DNA of 64,000 nucleotides from the IMG/VR virus record IMGVR_UViG_3300037067_016777, positions 32,001 through 96,000 of that record; one strand, 5' to 3'. The notes under the pieces were generated by a model. It did not search any database. It was not told where the DNA came from and saw only the letters and a list, made by a program, of their open reading frames with translations. The translations under genes and the position numbers were made by a program. This DNA comes from a virus. Taxonomy: Duplodnaviria; Caudoviricetes. This document shows, one piece after another, positions 19,280-30,966 of this stretch. The first letter of the stretch is position 1. Each line of letters opens with the position of its first letter.

Positions 19280-20167
19280 ATGAAACTAGCATTACTGTGT
19301 GAAGATTTCGATAGCCAGTTCAGAAACCAGCAGTTATCATGGGGAGAAAGAAATCGTGAATTTATCAAGATAAGAACAGAGGAGACGAAAAAAGAATTAT
19401 TGCGATTGGCAGTAAATGGTGCCAGACGACCAAAACCAACATCGTCAGATGCAAAAGAGCGACGGTTAGCAAATTCACTGGGCAGTTATACCGGCAAGTC
19501 GCGTTCCTATGATAGAGAATTCGATGATAAAATTCGTGCTTTAGCACCGCAATGGTTCCTCCATGTAAATGAACATAAAGAGGAATTGTTGACGTTGGCT
19601 AAAAGTGGTGCCGCTAGGCCGAGCTTTGCTAAAAATAGATCGCGGAAAGAACGAATACTGGCAGGAAGATTGAATAATTATATACAACCAACTAATAAAT
19701 CATATGACGCCGAATTCGTCGAGAAGTTGAGAAAGATAGCTCCAGGATGGCTAGTCGATAAGGTAGCGGAAAACAGAAAGAGGATATTGGAAATCGCTAA
19801 AAGTGGAGGAAAACGTCCCTGGATAACATCTACTGACCTGGAAGAGAAACGGATAGCATTAGCACTCAATAACTATCTCAAAAAGAGCCATCCCTCTTAC
19901 GATAGCAGATTTGTTGAAGAACTACAAAAAATTAGACCAGATTGGTTTCCACAATCAGTTGTGGCCGAGAATAAAAGAAGACTGCTAGCAATAGCTAAAA
20001 GCAGCGGAGCGCGTCCAAAGTTCACAGACGACAAGCAACTAGCACGAGCTATTATGACTTATACTGATAGAAATGGGCCATCCTATGATGAGGCGTTCGA
20101 TGCAGAAATTCGCAGATTAAGGCCAGATTGGTTCGGACGTGGATATCATCCTAGACGAGGTGTCTGA
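19280..20167 (+). CDS. tandem ~69-aa repeat protein 1 (4 repeats)
   Basis: KxxLLxxAxSGxxRP...ExRLA..L..Y...SYDxEF...IR...PxWF units. Confidence 0.85.
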   Translation: MKLALLCEDFDSQFRNQQLSWGERNREFIKIRTEETKKELLRLAVNGARRPKPTSSDAKERRLANSLGSYTGKSRSYDREFDDKIRALAPQWFLHVNEHKEELLTLAKSGAARPSFAKNRSRKERILAGRLNNYIQPTNKSYDAEFVEKLRKIAPGWLVDKVAENRKRILEIAKSGGKRPWITSTDLEEKRIALALNNYLKKSHPSYDSRFVEELQKIRPDWFPQSVVAENKRRLLAIAKSSGARPKFTDDKQLARAIMTYTDRNGPSYDEAFDAEIRRLRPDWFGRGYHPRRGV

Positions 20168-21084
20168 TGAAACTCAGTTTGCTAATAGAAGATTTCGATA
20201 GCGAATTTCGCGATGATTATACACCATACGCTGATAGAAATAAAGAACATGATAGATTAAGGATAGCAGAGACGAAACGAGAAATAATAAAATTAGCGGC
20301 AAGCGGTGCAAAACGACCAAACCCAAAATCAAAAGACCCAAAAGAAAGACGACTAGCGAATTTTATAAACTCCCATGCAAGCCCCGCATCTCACGTTTAT
20401 GACATGAAATTTCGTGGCGCTTTGCGTGAAATAGCCCCGCATTGGTTTAGCTGGGCAGTAGAGTTAAAAGATGAATTGCTAAATCTTGCTAAAAGCGGCG
20501 CAAAACGACCGAACATCAGATCCAAGGATCCGAAGGAAAGAAAGCTCGGGCAGGCGTTTGATAGCTATTATCGCCGAACGTCCAAAGCATACGATCCAGA
20601 ATTCATTAAGAAAATCAAAGCGATAGCTCCAGAATGGCTAATATATAAGACGCCAAGAGTAGAAGAGAACATACGGAAGCTGTTAGAGATAGCCAAGAGC
20701 GGAGGGCAGCGGCCTAGTTGGATGTCGAGCGATCCTGAAGTTAGGCGATTAGCAAACGCATTAACCAGCTATATGAGAGTGGATTCTACAACCTATAGAA
20801 AAGACTTTGCCAATCAATTGCGTAAATTGCGGCCAGAATGGTTTATAGATATACTGGTAGCGAAGCATAAAAAACGGATACTAGAAATAGCTAAGGGCGG
20901 AGAGAAGCGACCACGATATAATGCTGGTCCTGAGGAGAGGCGATTAGCAGTAGCACTTGCTCTCTATATTGATAAATCTGGTAACTCGTATGATAAGGAA
21001 TTTGATGAGATGCTTCGCAAAATGAGGCCAGATTGGTTTATTAGGAGACATAGAGGATACGGCGACAAGAAACAACCGCTCTAA
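20167..21084 (+). CDS. tandem ~69-aa repeat protein 2 (4 repeats)
   Basis: same repeat; GAGGTG RBS; MKLSLLIEDFDSEFR N-terminus. Confidence 0.85.
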   Translation: MKLSLLIEDFDSEFRDDYTPYADRNKEHDRLRIAETKREIIKLAASGAKRPNPKSKDPKERRLANFINSHASPASHVYDMKFRGALREIAPHWFSWAVELKDELLNLAKSGAKRPNIRSKDPKERKLGQAFDSYYRRTSKAYDPEFIKKIKAIAPEWLIYKTPRVEENIRKLLEIAKSGGQRPSWMSSDPEVRRLANALTSYMRVDSTTYRKDFANQLRKLRPEWFIDILVAKHKKRILEIAKGGEKRPRYNAGPEERRLAVALALYIDKSGNSYDKEFDEMLRKMRPDWFIRRHRGYGDKKQPL

Positions 21085-21094
21085 GAGGTGTCTG

Positions 21095-22234
21095 ATGAAA
21101 CTCAGTTTGCTAATAGAAGATTTCGATAGCGAATTTCGCAGGGAATATGTGCCATTCGGGCAGCGGAACCTTAAATATATTAGGTTAAGAATGGAGGAAA
21201 CTAAGGAGAAATTATTAGAGCTAGCAAGAAGCGGAGTGAAACGCCCAAAATATAAATCGCTTGATCCAGAAGAAAGGCGACTAGCTCGTGCATTAAATGA
21301 TTTTACAAGCCTAGACGTTGCACGGCGTGACCCAGAATTCTGTGCTAAGATATATGCCCTCGCTCCAGGATGGTTTGATCCAGACAGGAAAGCTAGGGTA
21401 ATAGCTACAAAAAAGAAGCTATTAGAGATAGCGAGAAGCGGGGGAGAGCGACCAAGATACAACTCTACCGATCCAGAAGAAAGACGACTAGCGATCTCAT
21501 TAACCCGTTATGCCGTTCATCCGGATACAAAAGATGACGAATTTGCAAAAGAGATATTCGTAGCAAGGCCAGAATGGGCACCGGGGTATCGCACAATCCT
21601 AATGGCAAGAACAAAAGAGAAATTGCTGAAGATGGCTGCGAGTGGAGCCGCACGCCCGGACCGATATTCAACAAACCGGGAAGAGGCTAAATTAGGAATA
21701 GCCCTAAATAATTATACTACTAAGAGCCAGCGACAATATGATGCAGATTTCTACAATAAACTCGTTAAAATCAACCCTGATTGGGTTGATAGATTGGATC
21801 AGATATATAAAAGAGTGGCAGAGACGAAGAAGAAACTGCTGGAAATGGCAAGGAATAACGAAAGACGACCAAACATCAGATCTAATAATCCAGAAGAAAG
21901 ACGACTAGGAATAGCTCTCAGCGTCTATGTCAACAAATTAACAAGATCTTATGATGCAATATTTACAAGAGAAATCCGTGCACTTAGACCAGATTGGTTT
22001 GATTCAGACAGAAAAGCAATAGTGGCAGAGACGAAGAAGAAACTGCTGGAAATGGCAAGGAATAACGAAAGACGACCTCAATACAAGTCAAGCGATCTAG
22101 AAGAGAAGCGATTGTCTAGCGCATTAATGACTTACACTTCAACCGGTAGTGGTTCTTACGACGAAGCATTTACAAGAGAAATCCGTGCACTTAGACCAGA
22201 TTGGTTTGATTCAGACAGAAGAGGAGCAATATGA
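21095..22234 (+). CDS. tandem ~69-aa repeat protein 3 (5 repeats)
   Basis: same repeat; the last two units are a 207-bp duplication (starting 21814 and 22021). Confidence 0.85.
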   Translation: MKLSLLIEDFDSEFRREYVPFGQRNLKYIRLRMEETKEKLLELARSGVKRPKYKSLDPEERRLARALNDFTSLDVARRDPEFCAKIYALAPGWFDPDRKARVIATKKKLLEIARSGGERPRYNSTDPEERRLAISLTRYAVHPDTKDDEFAKEIFVARPEWAPGYRTILMARTKEKLLKMAASGAARPDRYSTNREEAKLGIALNNYTTKSQRQYDADFYNKLVKINPDWVDRLDQIYKRVAETKKKLLEMARNNERRPNIRSNNPEERRLGIALSVYVNKLTRSYDAIFTREIRALRPDWFDSDRKAIVAETKKKLLEMARNNERRPQYKSSDLEEKRLSSALMTYTSTGSGSYDEAFTREIRALRPDWFDSDRRGAI

Positions 22235-22249
22235 TATTAGTATAACGTT

Positions 22250-24499
22250 TCACGATACTCCTAGGGCTATATCTGGTGGGAGCATCTGTATCCGATGAAG
22301 TACAGTTTCTACATCAAGATTCAACTTATGCCCCCATTCCGCTGCCGTGAGCTTCTCATTATTATAAATGAATTTCGTGACTTGATGGCCTACCATTATA
22401 GCCTTGTGGAATTTAGCATAATTTGCCCCTAATTTTCTTGCCCACTCAGCCATTAATAATGTCTGACCATTATATTCATATCTTGTCCTGCCCACGCCTC
22501 TACATCTCAATTTCACCACAGCCGTGAATCTGCTTGCCCACTCCCTTAGCGTCAACGACTCACCATTATATGTGAATAACTTTGTGTCATATGCTTTTAA
22601 TTTCCTCTGTTTATAGCATTCGACAGCTAATGCCTTTTCTACTGGCTGTCGAATCAAACGACGCTGCATTGCTTTTACTGAGCACTGTCTTCTTTTTGCC
22701 CATTCCTCTATTGTAAGAGATTCGCCATTATAGGTGAATAGATGCGTTGGAGTCAGATTATGCAGTCGCTCCAACAGAACCTCTATTGGTATTTTGCTAG
22801 AATAAACAGCAAGCGTGTCTGGCGATATATCAAATGTTTTTGCCCATTTATGCAATGACATCGTTCGGCCGAGATATGTATATTTCTTCACATTTGATGA
22901 TTGATTCGTCTTTTGTTCTGCGTCGGGACTTACCTGATTTGCCTGGATCTGATCTGTTTTGATATGCTCCGCTTGTGCTTTCTCGACCTCAGCGAAACAT
23001 GTGAGGCGTTTAACCGCCTTTGATTCTATCTGACGTATCCGTTCTCTCGTAACCTTGTATTTTACAGCTATTTCTTGAAGACTTAATCCTTGTGCACGTA
23101 ATTGCAGTACCTTGATGGCTCTCGCTGACAATTTGTCGTTCTGAGATTTATGTGATTTGTTATACCATTCCACGACTTCATCTAGTGATATGCCGAATAT
23201 GTTTTCAGGCTTCGAGACGTTTCGACAACAAGCATATTCCTTCTCCGCTTCTCGTCTCTCATATAGCATAATGAGATGCGACATCTTATGTCTTCCAACT
23301 ATCGACAAATAATTTAATATGTGCTGGTTCGACTCGAATTTATCAATATTGTTCTTCATTAAGATTGTGCAAGCCGCTGTCCAAGCAAGATCTTCAATAT
23401 CTTCGTCAGTACAAGGTTTTCGACGCACTTGATTGCAGTAAAACGTCAATACAGACACAATCATATCGGCAATCGGTTTGCCATCACCCGTTAAGAAATA
23501 ATTCTTAAAAGCTGACAACATATCAAATCTAGCGTACTTCGCTGGCAATTTTACGAAGTGCTGCGATTTTCGCATCGGATTTATGATAATATATGGATAA
23601 TCCGGGGCGTGGCTTGCTTTACGAGTTTTATGCCTAGTCCTGACATTTCTTCTTTTGTGTTTTCTCTCTGCTTTTCCGAGCCTATAACGCTCTACTGCTT
23701 CTGCTAATGAATGGGAAGCAACGTAGCCTTGAAACGTCATCTTACTCACATTTAACTCTGTCGCCCATTCTCTACATGTCAACGATTTACCGTCGTATTC
23801 GTATCTCGGTACAACATATTTCACATTTATTGCCTCTTCAATCGGCAATCGCCGTAACCGCCTCGACATCTGTGTCATAGATAGGCCCAGCTTCTGAGCC
23901 CATTCAGCGGTTGTTAATGATTCGTCGCCAAATGTATACCTCCTAGTCCTGTTCTCTTGTACAGCCTTCTGAAATTTTTCGTTATCAAGTGCTATTTCAT
24001 GCGAATAGCTATTCAATCTGTTTCGCAATTGCGAAACAGAGATTCCTAACTCGGTCGCCCACTCTTTGGTTGTTTGTGATTTTCCATTGCACTTATACCG
24101 CCTCGCCCTATTTGCCTCAATAACCGCTTTGAATCTTTCATTATCCAACGCCACATCGACTGCATAACGCCTCAACCTGTGTCTTAGTTGGTCATATGAA
24201 ATGCCCAATTCAATTGCCCACTCATCCAACGTTTTCCCACCATGCGTGAACTCTTTTGATATTACACCAGCGACTTTCCTGTACTCCGTGTTATCTAATG
24301 CCACCTCCGGGATATAGTCCCTTAACCTGCGCAATAGCCGTCGTGGTGTAATCCCTAACCTAGATGCCCACTGATGCAATGCCAGCGTTTCGCCGTCGAG
24401 CGTCAGTATCTTCTCATATTCCGGTTTTGGATAGATATCGACGTTATATTCATCACTATCAAGGGCAATAGTAAAACTCACACAGTTAGCGTTGTCCAT
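22250..24499 (-). CDS. sigma70-like protein (region 4, probable region 2) flanked by ten HTH-like repeats
   Basis: LSARAIKVLQLR...SLQEIAVKYKVTRERIRQIESKAVKRL; DIEDL...IDKFE...YL; ten YxGxxxTxxEWA repeats. Confidence 0.8.
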   Translation of the reverse strand: MDNANCVSFTIALDSDEYNVDIYPKPEYEKILTLDGETLALHQWASRLGITPRRLLRRLRDYIPEVALDNTEYRKVAGVISKEFTHGGKTLDEWAIELGISYDQLRHRLRRYAVDVALDNERFKAVIEANRARRYKCNGKSQTTKEWATELGISVSQLRNRLNSYSHEIALDNEKFQKAVQENRTRRYTFGDESLTTAEWAQKLGLSMTQMSRRLRRLPIEEAINVKYVVPRYEYDGKSLTCREWATELNVSKMTFQGYVASHSLAEAVERYRLGKAERKHKRRNVRTRHKTRKASHAPDYPYIIINPMRKSQHFVKLPAKYARFDMLSAFKNYFLTGDGKPIADMIVSVLTFYCNQVRRKPCTDEDIEDLAWTAACTILMKNNIDKFESNQHILNYLSIVGRHKMSHLIMLYERREAEKEYACCRNVSKPENIFGISLDEVVEWYNKSHKSQNDKLSARAIKVLQLRAQGLSLQEIAVKYKVTRERIRQIESKAVKRLTCFAEVEKAQAEHIKTDQIQANQVSPDAEQKTNQSSNVKKYTYLGRTMSLHKWAKTFDISPDTLAVYSSKIPIEVLLERLHNLTPTHLFTYNGESLTIEEWAKRRQCSVKAMQRRLIRQPVEKALAVECYKQRKLKAYDTKLFTYNGESLTLREWASRFTAVVKLRCRGVGRTRYEYNGQTLLMAEWARKLGANYAKFHKAIMVGHQVTKFIYNNEKLTAAEWGHKLNLDVETVLHRIQMLPPDIALGVS

Positions 24500-24508
24500 A
24501 ATACTAAT

Positions 24509-24578
24509 GTCATAGCACGAAAAGCGGAAATTATTAATCTCCTTAATAGTTAATAATTTCCGCTTTTCGTGCTATGAA
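24509..24578. promoter_or_regulatory. back-to-back promoters forming a 28-bp perfect inverted repeat
   Basis: 24510-24537 is the reverse complement of 24550-24577, with a 12-nt spacer. Confidence 0.9.
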
Positions 24579-24638: not shown

Positions 24639-25025
24639 ATGAACAATAGAGTCCAAGGTGCAAACGCAGAAAATTCCATTCCAATCCTCATAAAAACGAA
24701 GGTTGGTTATGTAGAATTGTTGTTATCATTCATATCAAGCGATAACATCGAGAACTTCCCAGACAATGCAAGAGAATGTGCCGTAGAAGTGGACGGCCAA
24801 TGGATGGTACCTGGAATAACAGGGGCGAGAATGTTGCTGGGTCCATTAATGGAAAACGTGCCCGCTGGTGATGGAGGAGTGCCTATAAAACCAGAAATGG
24901 CACAACGAATAGCAGAAGGCATCGACCTGCCTGAGTTTCTGGCTAAATTCCGTGGTGAAGTAGACGACAATAGTATCGTCGCACGGATTATAGACGCATT
25001 TTTACAGAAGTATCGTGGCTACTAA
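24639..25025 (+). CDS. hypothetical protein
   Basis: ORF downstream of the rightward promoter. Confidence 0.6.
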   Translation: MNNRVQGANAENSIPILIKTKVGYVELLLSFISSDNIENFPDNARECAVEVDGQWMVPGITGARMLLGPLMENVPAGDGGVPIKPEMAQRIAEGIDLPEFLAKFRGEVDDNSIVARIIDAFLQKYRGY

Positions 25026-25398: not shown

Positions 25399-28300
25399 CT
25401 AGTAATCGTAGTCTTCGTCGTCGTCATCTTCCGTGGCCGGTACGTATTCGACTTCCATGTCTTTGACTTTATCGTAGAACTTAATCTCATCAACCTTCAC
25501 GCCACAGCCGTATTGATTGGCCTGCACGTAAAGCTTGTTTATTGTCCATCCGTTGATATCAATCCCACGCTCGATGACGTAACCAACCATATTCTCGATC
25601 CATCTAGGCCAGAGATTACTTGGCACCGACAGATCTTCTTTGTGATCTTCCCACAGATCGCCGTCGTCATCAACGTAATCTTCGAGGAACTTGGTACGTT
25701 GCTCTTCATACCAAGCTGCTCTAATCAATTCATACGCTTTCTGTTCTATGGCATGGATCGGCCTTCTCATCAGCCGTTCCTTCTTCTTCGCCTTCTCCGC
25801 TTTCTGCTCCTCTACCACGAACGAAGTGATGTTATCTTCGAAGATGATAACGATGGTTTGATTTCTCCAAGTCAGATCGTCTGGTTTTAGAGAAATACCA
25901 CGGCAACCTGATAACCTGAAATGCAACTCGTCTTGCTTCTTTTCCCATCTGACGCGAACTGTGGCACATTCCGGGCTTTCGACGCGACCTGTCATCAATT
26001 TCTTCGTCATCGAAGCGTGATATTGCAAGTAGTAGAGACAGACGCTCTCGTCCTTCGGATCGGCAGCCACCGCAAGCGGCTTTAGCCACGGCCTACGACC
26101 GTGCTCACGTCTTCCATCAAGAAATTCTGACCATTCAGGTGGATTCGCAGCCACATCAGCCAATTCTGCCAATGCGTAATCAGCAGCCTGCTTCCGTTCT
26201 GCGTCTGTCAGATGTTCTTGTGATCGTGCACCGATTAGCCATTCACTCCATCGCGGATGACTCCACACCAATTGCCAACTCTCATGTCGCTTGTCGACGA
26301 CGGCCCACTCTTTCATGGATGCACGACGCACAAACACGCCACAATCAAATTGGATGATATTCTCACCGTTTGTAGATGCAAGAACCGATCCAAGCTGCGT
26401 GTCAGCACACAATTTCCAGATTTCCTCTTGGACCCAAACATTCTCGGAATTCTCGCACCGTAGAACTGCATAGCTTTTGTCTGGTCGGTAGAAGATCGCC
26501 AGAGCCTTGTCGTCTCGAAGTTTTTCTACCGCTTGCTCGTGTGCTTCGGCCAGTGCCTCATTGTCGAGCAATTTCCGACGACCGAACTCGGCCACAATCA
26601 TTCGCAACGCTTTGGCGTCTTCTGACAGTAACGCCCGATGCTCTCGTGTCTTGAATTTCCACCATTTGATCAATGCATCAATACTACGTTCTGCTCTCGC
26701 AAATGATACATTGTGTTTTCCTGCAATGACGCCGATCAACAATTGGCGAAATGGAGCTTCTTCCTCTGCCTCCTTTTTCTTGATCGCGAGTGCGACCTTG
26801 AGTAGCGGAATCATATTGAGATAATGGTGCCGGTTCGTCCGCGACCGAATGTAAAACTCGATATCAGCAACAGTGACGCTATCGATGTTGATAATGAAAT
26901 CATCGGCCTTGTAGATCAGATAACTCACGCGTGGCGCATTTTGATTCCGGCCCCGCCAGTTGTTGTGGTCTGACTTATATAGGAACCTAAAACTTCTTTC
27001 ATCGACCTTTCTATCGATGATGTGGATTTCGTCGCTTGATGGCCTGTAAGCATGCTTGGTCCCTTGCCGCTCATGCAGATCGCGTCTGCCAGCATAATGA
27101 CCCTCAAACTCACCGATAATCCTACAACCAACCTCCAATTCACCATTCACGGCACCTAGCCATTTGTCAAAATCGGGCCGTCCTGTTCCAAGCAGATTCT
27201 CTGCGTCGTATCGCAGCGTTACGTGCTTCTGTCCTTCCAAGTTGCAGACGTTTATCGGCTCGTTGATGGGAAGCGGATGAAACACCTTCGTTCGATCAAG
27301 CAGACCTTGGATCATAATTAGGACGGTGTAGAAACGACGCTTCTTCGCTTCTGCCTTATCCATAGCCTGCATATACTTCGCAGAACCCGGCGTCAGCGGT
27401 TTCTTCACCTTATCGTGCGTATCCCAATCGGTGTGCGACTCATAGAAGAAGTGCTCGAATTCGTCTTTTCGCGGCAAGAACACTTCATCGACCCACAACG
27501 TTGTGTGAATGCGATATAGGTTCTCGCCATTGCGAATCAGAATGTAGAGGCATTTGTTTTGCCGGTTCAACTCTGAATTGACAAACGGATTGTCGTCGTA
27601 GAATTTCGGATTACGACGCGGCTTGATTGCAACAACGCCCCTGATCTCAGGGAGAACTTGTTGTAGATGCTCGGGGTCACTAACCCATGCGTCGAACTCT
27701 TCGACCGCTTTGAAATCGAGGCCACCACGTTTTGCAAAGTCTGCAGCTACCGCTGATTCTTCGTCCATGAATAAAACTTGTTGCCGAATGACGATCTTCT
27801 CGTCTTCTGATGCTGGTTCACCAGACTTGATTCGGACAATCTCTTCATCCTGACCAAGATATGCATTAATCATGTAAATGGCTTCCTGTGCCATTTCGAT
27901 CTGTCGTGTCAGAATAGCCGTCTTGGCTTTCAGAATCAGTGCTTGCTCTTGAATGAGCGTTTGCAATGCCGAGTGACGCTTCGCTATTTGATTCTTCGTG
28001 ACTGCGAACGCCGTCTTCACTCGCTTGAGATTCTTGGCGGCAATAGCCGGGTTCGTACGACTCGCCATTGCAACGAGATCGGTGCTGGTCGGCTGCCTTT
28101 GTGCTGGCCGTGTGTTGTCGGCCAATAGTTTCGGTGTCGAAGCCGACTCGATAAGGTTGTCTTGGCGGTCGCCGACTGCATGTAAACTCGACATAAGATC
28201 GGCAAGCTCATCCTGTCGTTCTCTAATCCCCTCTGGAGCATATGCAAAATGATCCAAGAAAGTATCGAGCGAGAACGTCCAAGTACTTTCACCTTGGATG

Positions 28301-28422
28301 AGCGTTACTTCATCCCCCTCAATCTCCGACAAATACCATAGACTTCCGACCTCACACCGGTTGCTGTCTCGGTCTTCGGACTCGTCGATACGCTCAATCA
28401 GTCTATAATATCCTTGTTCCAT
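25399..28422 (-). CDS. large hypothetical protein (1007 aa)
   Basis: long ORF with N-terminal coiled coil and acidic tail; no recognised catalytic motif; apparently leaderless start. Confidence 0.85.
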   Translation of the reverse strand: MEQGYYRLIERIDESEDRDSNRCEVGSLWYLSEIEGDEVTLIQGESTWTFSLDTFLDHFAYAPEGIRERQDELADLMSSLHAVGDRQDNLIESASTPKLLADNTRPAQRQPTSTDLVAMASRTNPAIAAKNLKRVKTAFAVTKNQIAKRHSALQTLIQEQALILKAKTAILTRQIEMAQEAIYMINAYLGQDEEIVRIKSGEPASEDEKIVIRQQVLFMDEESAVAADFAKRGGLDFKAVEEFDAWVSDPEHLQQVLPEIRGVVAIKPRRNPKFYDDNPFVNSELNRQNKCLYILIRNGENLYRIHTTLWVDEVFLPRKDEFEHFFYESHTDWDTHDKVKKPLTPGSAKYMQAMDKAEAKKRRFYTVLIMIQGLLDRTKVFHPLPINEPINVCNLEGQKHVTLRYDAENLLGTGRPDFDKWLGAVNGELEVGCRIIGEFEGHYAGRRDLHERQGTKHAYRPSSDEIHIIDRKVDERSFRFLYKSDHNNWRGRNQNAPRVSYLIYKADDFIINIDSVTVADIEFYIRSRTNRHHYLNMIPLLKVALAIKKKEAEEEAPFRQLLIGVIAGKHNVSFARAERSIDALIKWWKFKTREHRALLSEDAKALRMIVAEFGRRKLLDNEALAEAHEQAVEKLRDDKALAIFYRPDKSYAVLRCENSENVWVQEEIWKLCADTQLGSVLASTNGENIIQFDCGVFVRRASMKEWAVVDKRHESWQLVWSHPRWSEWLIGARSQEHLTDAERKQAADYALAELADVAANPPEWSEFLDGRREHGRRPWLKPLAVAADPKDESVCLYYLQYHASMTKKLMTGRVESPECATVRVRWEKKQDELHFRLSGCRGISLKPDDLTWRNQTIVIIFEDNITSFVVEEQKAEKAKKKERLMRRPIHAIEQKAYELIRAAWYEEQRTKFLEDYVDDDGDLWEDHKEDLSVPSNLWPRWIENMVGYVIERGIDINGWTINKLYVQANQYGCGVKVDEIKFYDKVKDMEVEYVPATEDDDDEDYDY

Positions 28423-28427
28423 GATTA

Positions 28428-28481
28428 GTTATAGCACGAGTAATTATCGATGTTAACTAAGACATCTGTTCGTGCTATAAC
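28428..28481. promoter_or_regulatory. overlapping divergent promoters sharing a GTTAAC palindrome
   Basis: minus 28428-28457 and plus 28452-28481, each TATAAC-5 nt-ATG. Confidence 0.85.
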
Positions 28482-29689: not shown

Positions 29690-29719
29690 ATTAAATAGTT
29701 GATAGCCTCGTGCTATGAC
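29690..29719 (+). promoter_or_regulatory. phage promoter copy (leaderless arrangement)
   Basis: TTAAAT-17(TCGTGC)-TATGAC, ATG 5 nt later. Confidence 0.75.
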
Positions 29720-29724
29720 CATTT

Positions 29725-30966
29725 ATGGTGAATAAGAAAACCAAGAAATTTGATAGGAAGAAGACGTATAACGGCGCATCGCTATTTCGCAGTTTTGTGG
29801 ATTATGTCTTCGAAAGAGATTCGACTCCAGAGGCCATTCGTCTTGATTTGGTGAAGGCGTTCAACCGATCAATGAAATGGGCATTAAATAAAGGTGAAAT
29901 CGTACGAAAGCCAGTTCGCGTAATGGCTGTGAACGAAATGGACGATTCTATCGTCCGATATGCCAGAAAGGTAATGGACGCAACACAATCATCTATATTC
30001 GGATTCGAGCAGCCGGCACAACTATTGTGGACGATTCTTAACCCAGCAATTCAAATTATGAAAGCGCTTGGCGATAAGCAATACGCCAAGCGTAAGAAGA
30101 TGAATGAACAGGCAGAAGCAGATTTTTCCATATTGGCGGAATTTGTAACTCCAGCGTACGATAAGCATGTTCTCGGTAAGCCGATTAATGACATGCTAAA
30201 CGACGTAATGCGATACTTGATTGATTTAAGCACATTCGATGGTGGTATCTATGTTGCAGATATGCTTGATAGCGATCATGGGCCGTTATTTCCCACGCCG
30301 GTCGTGGGAATAGCGAAAGAGATGAGGGTAAAAGATTTCAAGATAAACCGCAAAGTAAGGTCCGGCTATGGTATAGGTATGTTGAATAAGGGTGACCTTA
30401 AGTGGCTGGAGATTGAGTACAACGGTAATCAATTGCCTGTCTACATCCAAAAGCATGCTATAGACAGGCTTGTTGAAAGAACCGCACCAATAAGCGATTC
30501 AAATGCAGCAATATATATGATGGTGTGCGATTCTGTCTCAGAACCGGCTATATGCAGCCGCAACCATGACGGCTTTCTATTAGAGTGTAGATCACACAAT
30601 CGAAAGCTTGGATATTTCGGTTGCGTAGCAATACACAATGCTATCCTTATCACGACATTCCTGTTCTTGACGATGGATGGTACGCCAGAAGGCGAGCGGT
30701 TATGGCAGAAGCTGCGCCTCGGGCGTCAAGATAAAGAGTATCTTGGACTTGACAATTTACGAACATTTGTGAGCTCGGATATACGTTCTGATATTGCGCT
30801 ATCGCGTCTTCTTGGTGAATGTAGCTGCGGGCACCTGCTAAAGATAGAAGATAGCAATAGTATTGTGGTGTCTGGTGTGGCGGAGGATGTTCGGAATTAT
30901 CTGAGCAGTAATGAGAAGATACCAGTTTCAGTCATAAGTGCAGACCTCAGTAGTATACTGGGCTAA
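29725..30966 (+). CDS. hypothetical protein (413 aa)
   Basis: long ORF; HAIDRLVER motif. Confidence 0.8.
   Translation: MVNKKTKKFDRKKTYNGASLFRSFVDYVFERDSTPEAIRLDLVKAFNRSMKWALNKGEIVRKPVRVMAVNEMDDSIVRYARKVMDATQSSIFGFEQPAQLLWTILNPAIQIMKALGDKQYAKRKKMNEQAEADFSILAEFVTPAYDKHVLGKPINDMLNDVMRYLIDLSTFDGGIYVADMLDSDHGPLFPTPVVGIAKEMRVKDFKINRKVRSGYGIGMLNKGDLKWLEIEYNGNQLPVYIQKHAIDRLVERTAPISDSNAAIYMMVCDSVSEPAICSRNHDGFLLECRSHNRKLGYFGCVAIHNAILITTFLFLTMDGTPEGERLWQKLRLGRQDKEYLGLDNLRTFVSSDIRSDIALSRLLGECSCGHLLKIEDSNSIVVSGVAEDVRNYLSSNEKIPVSVISADLSSILG

Follow-up and report, generated by a model that had tools for sequence, protein, structure and literature searches.

A 269-kb IMG/VR virus record, IMGVR_UViG_3300037067_016777, whose source is an uncultured jumbo phage and whose completeness is estimated at 74%, encodes a protein in which a 205-aa (amino acid) minimal core of the sigma-70 family is flanked on both sides by arrays of helix-turn-helix (HTH) modules. 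The gene lies in the 64,000-nt stretch analyzed here (the window, bases 32001-96000 of the record; positions below are those of the window unless stated otherwise), where it occupies 22250..24499 on the (-) strand, stop codon included, as do on that strand all of its parts described below. Its product, P0001, is a basic protein (isoelectric point, pI, 9.6) with five modules of ~50 aa, the core, and then five more modules, one of them truncated. It is read here, with moderate confidence, as a minimal two-domain phage sigma factor, made early from the main promoter of the phage and probably redirecting the host core RNA polymerase, with the arrays serving as accessory DNA-binding arms. The open reading frame (ORF) is intact, staying open for 749 codons, and P0001 has an 80%-identical orthologue (P0002) from another metagenome. 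The order of repeats, core, and repeats, and their coordinates, had been proposed earlier from the nucleotide sequence alone (the original prediction); both are correct, and all ten repeats were found.

Sigma domain 4 (regions 4.1-4.2; aa 455-505, 22985..23137) was identified both by profile and by structure. Pfam Sigma70_r4 (PF04545) matches aa 455-499 with an E-value of 2e-13, at 49.9 bits against a cut-off of 24.1, and in alignments to solved chains this half of the core gives structural Z-scores of 7-8.8 to region 4 of SigR, SigD, and SigA. A profile of the six family cores (see below) also matches solved region-4 chains, with an E-value of 1e-10. The helix that the original prediction had cited as a clear region 4 corresponds to aa 470-496 (nt 23090-23010), within the stretch that Pfam places above its threshold. 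The recognition helix reads TRERIRQIE; its R-E-R-x-R-Q-I-E pattern is invariant in all six family cores and aligns with the corresponding residues of RpoD/SigA region 4.2; the helix is the same as in primary sigmas.

The other half of the core consists of a family-specific beta-hairpin (PDYPYIIINP...FVKL) and then sigma domain 2, together aa 301-430 (23210..23599), assigned from models, fold searches, and hhalign comparisons. AlphaFold2 models had a predicted local distance difference test (pLDDT) value of 77 for the core and 82 for aa 318-430 alone. When this domain-only model was aligned, with no Foldseek prefilter, to 48,161 representative solved chains, the 17 best-scoring rows were without exception sigma domain 2, including ShbA (Z 9.6, 103 residues aligned, root-mean-square deviation 3.7), SigC (Z 8.1), SigK (Z 8.0), BldN (Z 7.7), and region 2 of RpoS (Z 7.6). 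T4 gp55 stood further down the ranking, with a Z of 6.5 and a template modeling (TM) score of 0.51. Every Foldseek match with a TM score of at least 0.5 was likewise a sigma2 domain. The original prediction had been made to stand or fall with a sigma2 fold, and these 17 top rows supply one. The case for sigma2 is made because the fold matches are uniform, each number being modest in itself.

Comparisons at the sequence level lead to the same assignment. When aa 285-520 were searched exhaustively with HMMER against 1.84 billion representatives, a small family came back, P0002-P0006, plus, with an E-value of 7e-4, P0033, a sigma factor that has Pfam matches to both r2 and r4. In hhalign the family core scored 97.3% against P0033 over 169 columns, and the sigma2 part alone 65% (E-value 6e-5). 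A sigma2-only profile ranked SigW top in the PDB, with an E-value of 0.19 that is not significant and a register that agrees with the structural alignment. The region-2-like segment of the original prediction lies at aa 365-399 (~nt 23405-23300). Within the family, the invariant columns fall in the equivalents of regions 2.1-2.4 (EDxED, F-S-H-N-L) and in the 4.2 helix.

Sigma2 and sigma4 are joined by an acidic linker (aa 431-454, 23138..23209) of low confidence, with pLDDT below 50 at model residues 142-150. No sigma3 domain is present: the distance between the model helix 107-141 and sigma4 is ~25-30 aa, as in a two-domain sigma2/sigma4 protein, and Pfam gave no match to Sigma70_r3 or Sigma70 region 1 in P0001. 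On profiles and models, the core is of sigma-70 type, with a sigma2 fold and a sigma4 domain, the size of an extracytoplasmic function (ECF) sigma, and without sigma3. Co-folding of the sigma2 domain with residues 1-345 of E. coli beta-prime gave a score of 0.49, compared with 0.51 for a control with an unrelated first chain. The profile for MzaA, the sigma of the MZA anti-phage system (NF041931), gave 35 bits against a cut-off of 800, with region 4 alone aligning and the full-length match expected for that family lacking.

The modules on either side of the core are built alike, from a short beta-hairpin (Y-x-Y-x-G-x-S-L-T), an HTH (E-W-A-x-x-L-G-I-S-x-x-x-L-x-x-R-L), and a closing helix, and are anchored by an (E/K/Q)W(A/G) motif that occurs in ten copies in P0001. 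The N-terminal array (aa 26-275, 23675..24424; pI 9.4) has its tryptophan anchors at aa 44, 94, 147, 200, and 245; the C-terminal array (aa 536-749, 22253..22894; pI 9.8) has them at aa 552, 600, 654, 686, and 722. The eighth module (W654) stops after ~20 residues, and the ninth (W686) has a short tail. A very basic linker (aa 276-300, 23600..23674), with 11 K/R in 25 residues and a pI of 12, connects the N-terminal array to the core, and an acidic, Q-rich spacer that is weakly conserved (aa 506-535, 22895..22984; 46% identity with P0002) lies between the core and the C-terminal array. Counting those of the core, there are 12 HTH-type domains within this one protein. A hidden Markov model (HMM) of the ten copies found ten domains in its own ORF, a circular test, and no further carrier among the remaining frames of the 269-kb record.

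The modules had been likened to the DNA-binding tails of phage HNH endonucleases, and this likeness is upheld by PHROG 3377 ("HNH endonuclease"), which matches them in five stretches, the N-terminal array included, with an E-value of 1e-33. The match covers the tail part of the profile alone (positions 95-185 of 196), and none of Pfam, NCBIfam, or PHROG finds an HNH nuclease catalytic domain in P0001. PHROG 8446 is likewise matched by modules, and NCBIfam TIGR04111 (BcepMu gp16 family) passes its cut-off of 34 with 38.6 bits. In the ESM Atlas, I-HmuI_NUMOD-like and NUMOD1/I-TevI DNA-binding clusters are among the nearest neighbors; scoring less than 0.9, they count as leads and no more.

Even very large databases contain few members of this family. 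Megablast and tblastn searches of the phage GenBank collection with the gene or protein gave no match, and aa 440-650 gave just two weak region-4 matches there (E-value 4e-3); in a scan of IMG/VR with the core profile, other phages gave region-4 matches only. The few relatives differ in what surrounds the core. P0001 has five N-terminal and five C-terminal modules; P0002 has five and two, retaining just the first two of the C-terminal set; P0003 has six and none; P0005 and P0006 have none and two; and P0004 and P0039 have none at either end, being 215 and 223 aa long, with P0004 labelled a sigma-70 family factor by NCBI. The range on the same core is therefore zero to six N-terminal and zero to five C-terminal modules and, since bare cores of 215-223 aa exist in two relatives, the arrays are add-ons. 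The last three C-terminal modules of P0001 are missing from the available sequence of P0002, whose end may be incomplete.

Where the N-terminal array is present it is about as conserved as the core, at 80 vs. 87% identity with P0002 and 55 vs. 54% with P0003. Its modules are positionally orthologous to those of P0003, with identities of 68, 53, 63, 42, and 63%, whereas modules within a single protein are 18-47% identical to one another. The individual modules have therefore retained separate identities, which would be expected if each had a partner or sub-site of its own.

Some observations on individual proteins can be added. The database start of P0006 (TTG, position 1068 of its contig, L006) is probably wrong; an in-frame ATG at 981, 5 nt past a -10 hexamer, adds 29 residues (L006:981-1067) that include the conserved PDYxYhhIxP beta-hairpin of the family. 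Two unrelated long proteins are other unusual fusions of transcription-machinery parts: P0028 (1050 aa) combines Sigma70_r4 with two RNA polymerase alpha C-terminal domains, and P0013 (1289 aa) combines it with a weak, sub-threshold AAA_29 P-loop match.

The sigma gene belongs to the main-promoter regulon of the phage. The copy of the main promoter that had been proposed ahead of it is real (24509..24537, (-) strand): TTAATA (24537-24532), 17 nt, and (TCG)TGC-TATGAC, ending 9 nt before the ATG, with a predicted transcript start at ~24502 and a leader of ~3 nt. A divergent twin on the (+) strand (24550..24578), with the -10 element TATGAA, faces the ORF at 24639-25025, and the two back-to-back copies form a perfect 27-nt inverted repeat (24511-24537 / 24550-24576). 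The contigs of the relatives carry the same promoter, and in L006 the sigma gene again stands behind a back-to-back pair with TATGAC and TATGAA, a pair kept although the proteins share just 31% identity.

The 28 strict copies of the main promoter all lie at 4-144 kb of the 269-kb record. Their consensus, G-TTAAYA, 17 nt, TCG-TGC-TATRAY, is compact and nearly invariant; its geometry, with a 17-nt spacer and an extended -10 (TGn-TATAAT), is the standard primary-sigma type and suits a host sigma, whereas the invariant G-TTAA and TCG positions, which are not known as part of the standard bacterial consensus, speak against such a reader. An ECF-type reading (AAC ... CGT) was considered and rejected: the AAY-to-CGT gap is 13 nt, where the usual ECF gap is roughly 16 nt, and TTAAYA / 17 nt / TATAAT fits the primary type. 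Many main-promoter genes have a start codon 5-9 nt past the -10 hexamer and look leaderless, among them the 1007-aa ORF at 28422 and the ORFs that begin close to 28472 and 29725 (28422-28480, 29691-29727, 24499-24537); in several neighbors of the sigma gene the distance to the ATG is 5-8 nt. Other copies carry a 5' hairpin and an ACAGGAG ribosome-binding site, so that there are two translation-start modes under one promoter class.

In the reading favored here, P0001 is made early, from the main promoter. Host core RNA polymerase is its probable target because no polymerase gene was found in the available part of the phage genome, the 269-kb record (74% complete) having yielded no RNA polymerase beta or beta-prime domains. 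The domain identities, folds, range of architectures, conservation pattern, and promoter copy stand on the data above; what follows on RNA polymerase, on how the arrays are placed and contact DNA, and on the promoters served is inferred. Sigma2 would engage the clamp helices of beta-prime and either read the -10 region or open it, and sigma4 would bind the beta flap and read a -35 element. On standard holoenzyme geometry, the C-terminal array, following sigma4, would extend to DNA lying upstream of -35, and the N-terminal array, preceding sigma2, would be placed near that domain. The arrays could then tether or aim the holoenzyme on phage DNA, in the manner of a built-in activator or of UP-element readers. 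Because the main promoter is the sole bipartite class found, P0001 possibly takes over or reinforces that class rather than opening a new one.

Several results weigh against this picture. Pfam Sigma70_r2 (PF04542) is unmatched in P0001 and in the relatives P0003-P0006, and TIGR02937 (sigma70-ECF) reaches 35.1 bits, under its cut-off of 42.9, although its alignment is one continuous stretch covering aa 362-499 and profile positions 25-161 of 165. Z-scores of 7-9.6 are middling for helical domains, and the Foldseek E-values, at 0.18 or above, are not significant. P0001 lacks sigma3, whereas the extended -10 (TG) conserved in the main promoter is read by region 3 (sigma3) in primary sigmas; this fits a host sigma as the reader of the main promoter. 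The phage record is just 74% complete. Finally, searches for DNA sites that the arrays might bind came up empty. When the 28 main promoters were aligned, their information profile had no conservation upstream of -37, clusters of repeated 8-mers proved to be mostly coding repeats, and a tandem-repeat search gave nothing relevant, with no non-coding repeat arrays standing out. Of the long-site DNA recognition put forward in the original prediction, then, the idea itself is plausible from the module-by-module conservation, and the sites to go with it did not appear. That each of the ten diverged, individually conserved modules reads its own sub-site, aiming or locking the holoenzyme at a few long composite phage sites, is offered as a less likely way in which the arrays might work.

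Other explanations for this protein were weighed against the same evidence. It might be the sigma factor of a separate middle or late promoter class, with a host sigma reading the main promoters and an early product then switching on another set of genes. The position of the sigma gene itself behind a main promoter, so that some other sigma must transcribe it first, would suit such a switch, as would the primary-type main promoter with its extended -10, which P0001, without sigma3, is not expected to read. A search for bipartite motifs in the upstream regions of all 269 kb, however, found no second -35/-10 class, any pair occurring in at most four genes; a small regulon would escape such a search. 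With the main promoter as the only two-part class found, the switch to a later promoter class suggested in the original prediction is weakened, and a separate class of this kind seems rather unlikely. GTATTTWA and AAAGATAT, the only further motifs enriched upstream of genes, each consist of one element and are candidates for -10-only middle or late promoter classes; being single -10-like elements, they are a better fit for a gp55-type factor than for one with sigma2 and sigma4. GTATTTWA occurs 10-20 nt ahead of many start codons, often as an inverted pair (TTAAATAC...GTATTTAA), with examples at genome positions 68759/68769, 94193/94201, and 97556/97567 (36759, 62193, and 65556 in window numbering), and AAAGATAT occurs 11-30 nt ahead of starts in the 200-267 kb region of the record. 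A 346-aa ORF at ~248 kb of the record was considered as a gp55-like factor and could not be confirmed; it has a faint Sigma70_r2 match (E-value 0.055) and no PHROG, Pfam, or PDB sequence match.

An improbable alternative dispenses with transcription initiation altogether: P0001 would be a multi-HTH DNA-binding regulator, or an organizer of phage DNA, that has lost RNA polymerase binding and in which the core supplies two more DNA-binding or dimerizing domains. The number of HTH-type domains in one basic protein, the missing Pfam r2 match, the perfect 27-nt palindrome ahead of the gene, which could be an operator, and the HA-like repeat protein genes that adjoin the sigma gene here and lie near it in two relatives (see below) would all be in keeping with it. 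The bare cores of the relatives, on the other hand, make sense for a sigma factor and less so for an array protein, and the invariant columns in the region 2.1-2.4 equivalents and the 4.2 helix are as expected if polymerase and promoter contacts have been retained. The same invariance of the DNA-reading residues of helix 4.2, needless in a pure decoy, makes it very unlikely that P0001 binds host core polymerase through sigma2 and sigma4 only to hold it on DNA by means of the arrays, so that host transcription stops and no productive transcripts are begun. That idea draws on the architecture alone, a predicted polymerase-binding core with many DNA anchors behind an early-type promoter, and the relatives without arrays cannot act in this way.

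As a sigma factor, P0001 can be compared with several known systems. The closest in layout are the ECF (group 4) sigmas, such as B. subtilis SigW (PDB 5WUR/5WUQ), M. tuberculosis SigK, SigC, and SigL, and Streptomyces ShbA (PDB 9M84/9ISN), which share with it an arrangement of ~200 aa, sigma2-linker-sigma4, without region 1.1 or sigma3, and provide the best structural matches of its sigma2 half. Its F-E-S-x-x-H-x-L-N-Y-L-x-I-x-x-R stretch also resembles, on inspection, the ECF region 2.3/2.4 motif. It departs from these sigmas in the two profile shortfalls noted above (TIGR02937 and Pfam r2), and from typical ECFs in its primary-sigma-like 4.2 helix and the family-specific N-terminal beta-hairpin. 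T4 gp55, the late sigma (PDB 7D7C/7D7D), is also a phage protein with a sigma2-like domain and is a weaker structural match, as its place in the fold ranking indicates; it lacks sigma4, its partners being gp33 and the sliding clamp, whereas P0001 has a full sigma4. As to the homing endonucleases of phages, HNH and other, whose tails bind DNA (PHROG 3377 and 8446; NUMOD-type, as in I-HmuI and I-TevI), the repeat unit of P0001 corresponds to the C-terminal half of PHROG 3377, where two modules stand in tandem. P0001 differs from these enzymes in having no nuclease domain and ten modules, not one or two, attached to a sigma core.

Extensions of ECF sigmas are known: those of ECF41 and ECF56 (SnoaL-type) are described as single fused C-terminal domains, regulatory in ECF41 (PMC3426412, PMC7730460), and relative to these accounts the extensions of P0001 are HTH arrays and not a single C-terminal domain. 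Jumbo phages of group 2 (T4-type) reportedly lack RNA polymerase and encode sigma factors; the forms described are a minimal single-HTH one and an RpoD-like one, with none that has flanking HTH arrays (Iyer et al., 2021, PMC7824862). The present case is similar in that the sigma is phage-encoded, in a large phage in which no RNA polymerase genes were found, and in that recruitment of the host polymerase is presumed. No description of a sigma factor flanked by homing-endonuclease HTH/NUMOD arrays was found in the searchable literature. Phage sigmas and single-domain ECF fusions are thus already known, and the array-flanked layout was found only in a few related phages.

The surroundings of the sigma gene recur in part among these phages. 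Genes for basic HA-like repeat proteins (AKSGxxRP...PDWF units) at 19280-22234 adjoin it here; by tblastx they also adjoin it in L006 (1-873) and lie ~2 kb away in L087 (1-414), the contig that encodes P0004. This recurring linkage might reflect a functional partnership. The bare-core sigma P0004 (L087:2667-3314) begins MKLNLLAE, and a MKLxLLxE start is common to it and to three of the HA-like repeat proteins in the window (19280, 20167, 21095); P0001 has no such start. Were this start a T4-type capsid-targeting peptide, some members of the family could travel in the virion and enter the host as a finished sigma factor. On the other side, a 1007-aa orphan protein (25402-28422) with no Pfam or PHROG match is 95% identical to a 998-aa protein of L087 (8486-11479), and the sigma proteins of the two phages share 32%. 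Judging from these identities, either the sigma gene may have evolved very fast or the genomes may be mosaic.

To find promoters, a sigma factor normally uses two to four domains of its own, extra DNA contacts being made by separate activators. Ten additional sequence-reading modules in P0001 would mean that promoter recognition by a bacterial polymerase can be extended within one polypeptide, and that the DNA-binding modules of homing endonucleases have found a second use in transcription. Since relatives form a natural series, with zero to six N-terminal and zero to five C-terminal modules on the same core, this idea can be tested directly. If the modules do read long composite sites, P0001 would unite a sigma factor and an activator in one natural polypeptide assembled from homing-endonuclease parts, whose specificity evolves by the gain and loss of modules, and engineered sigmas with long target sites that can be designed could be modeled on it.

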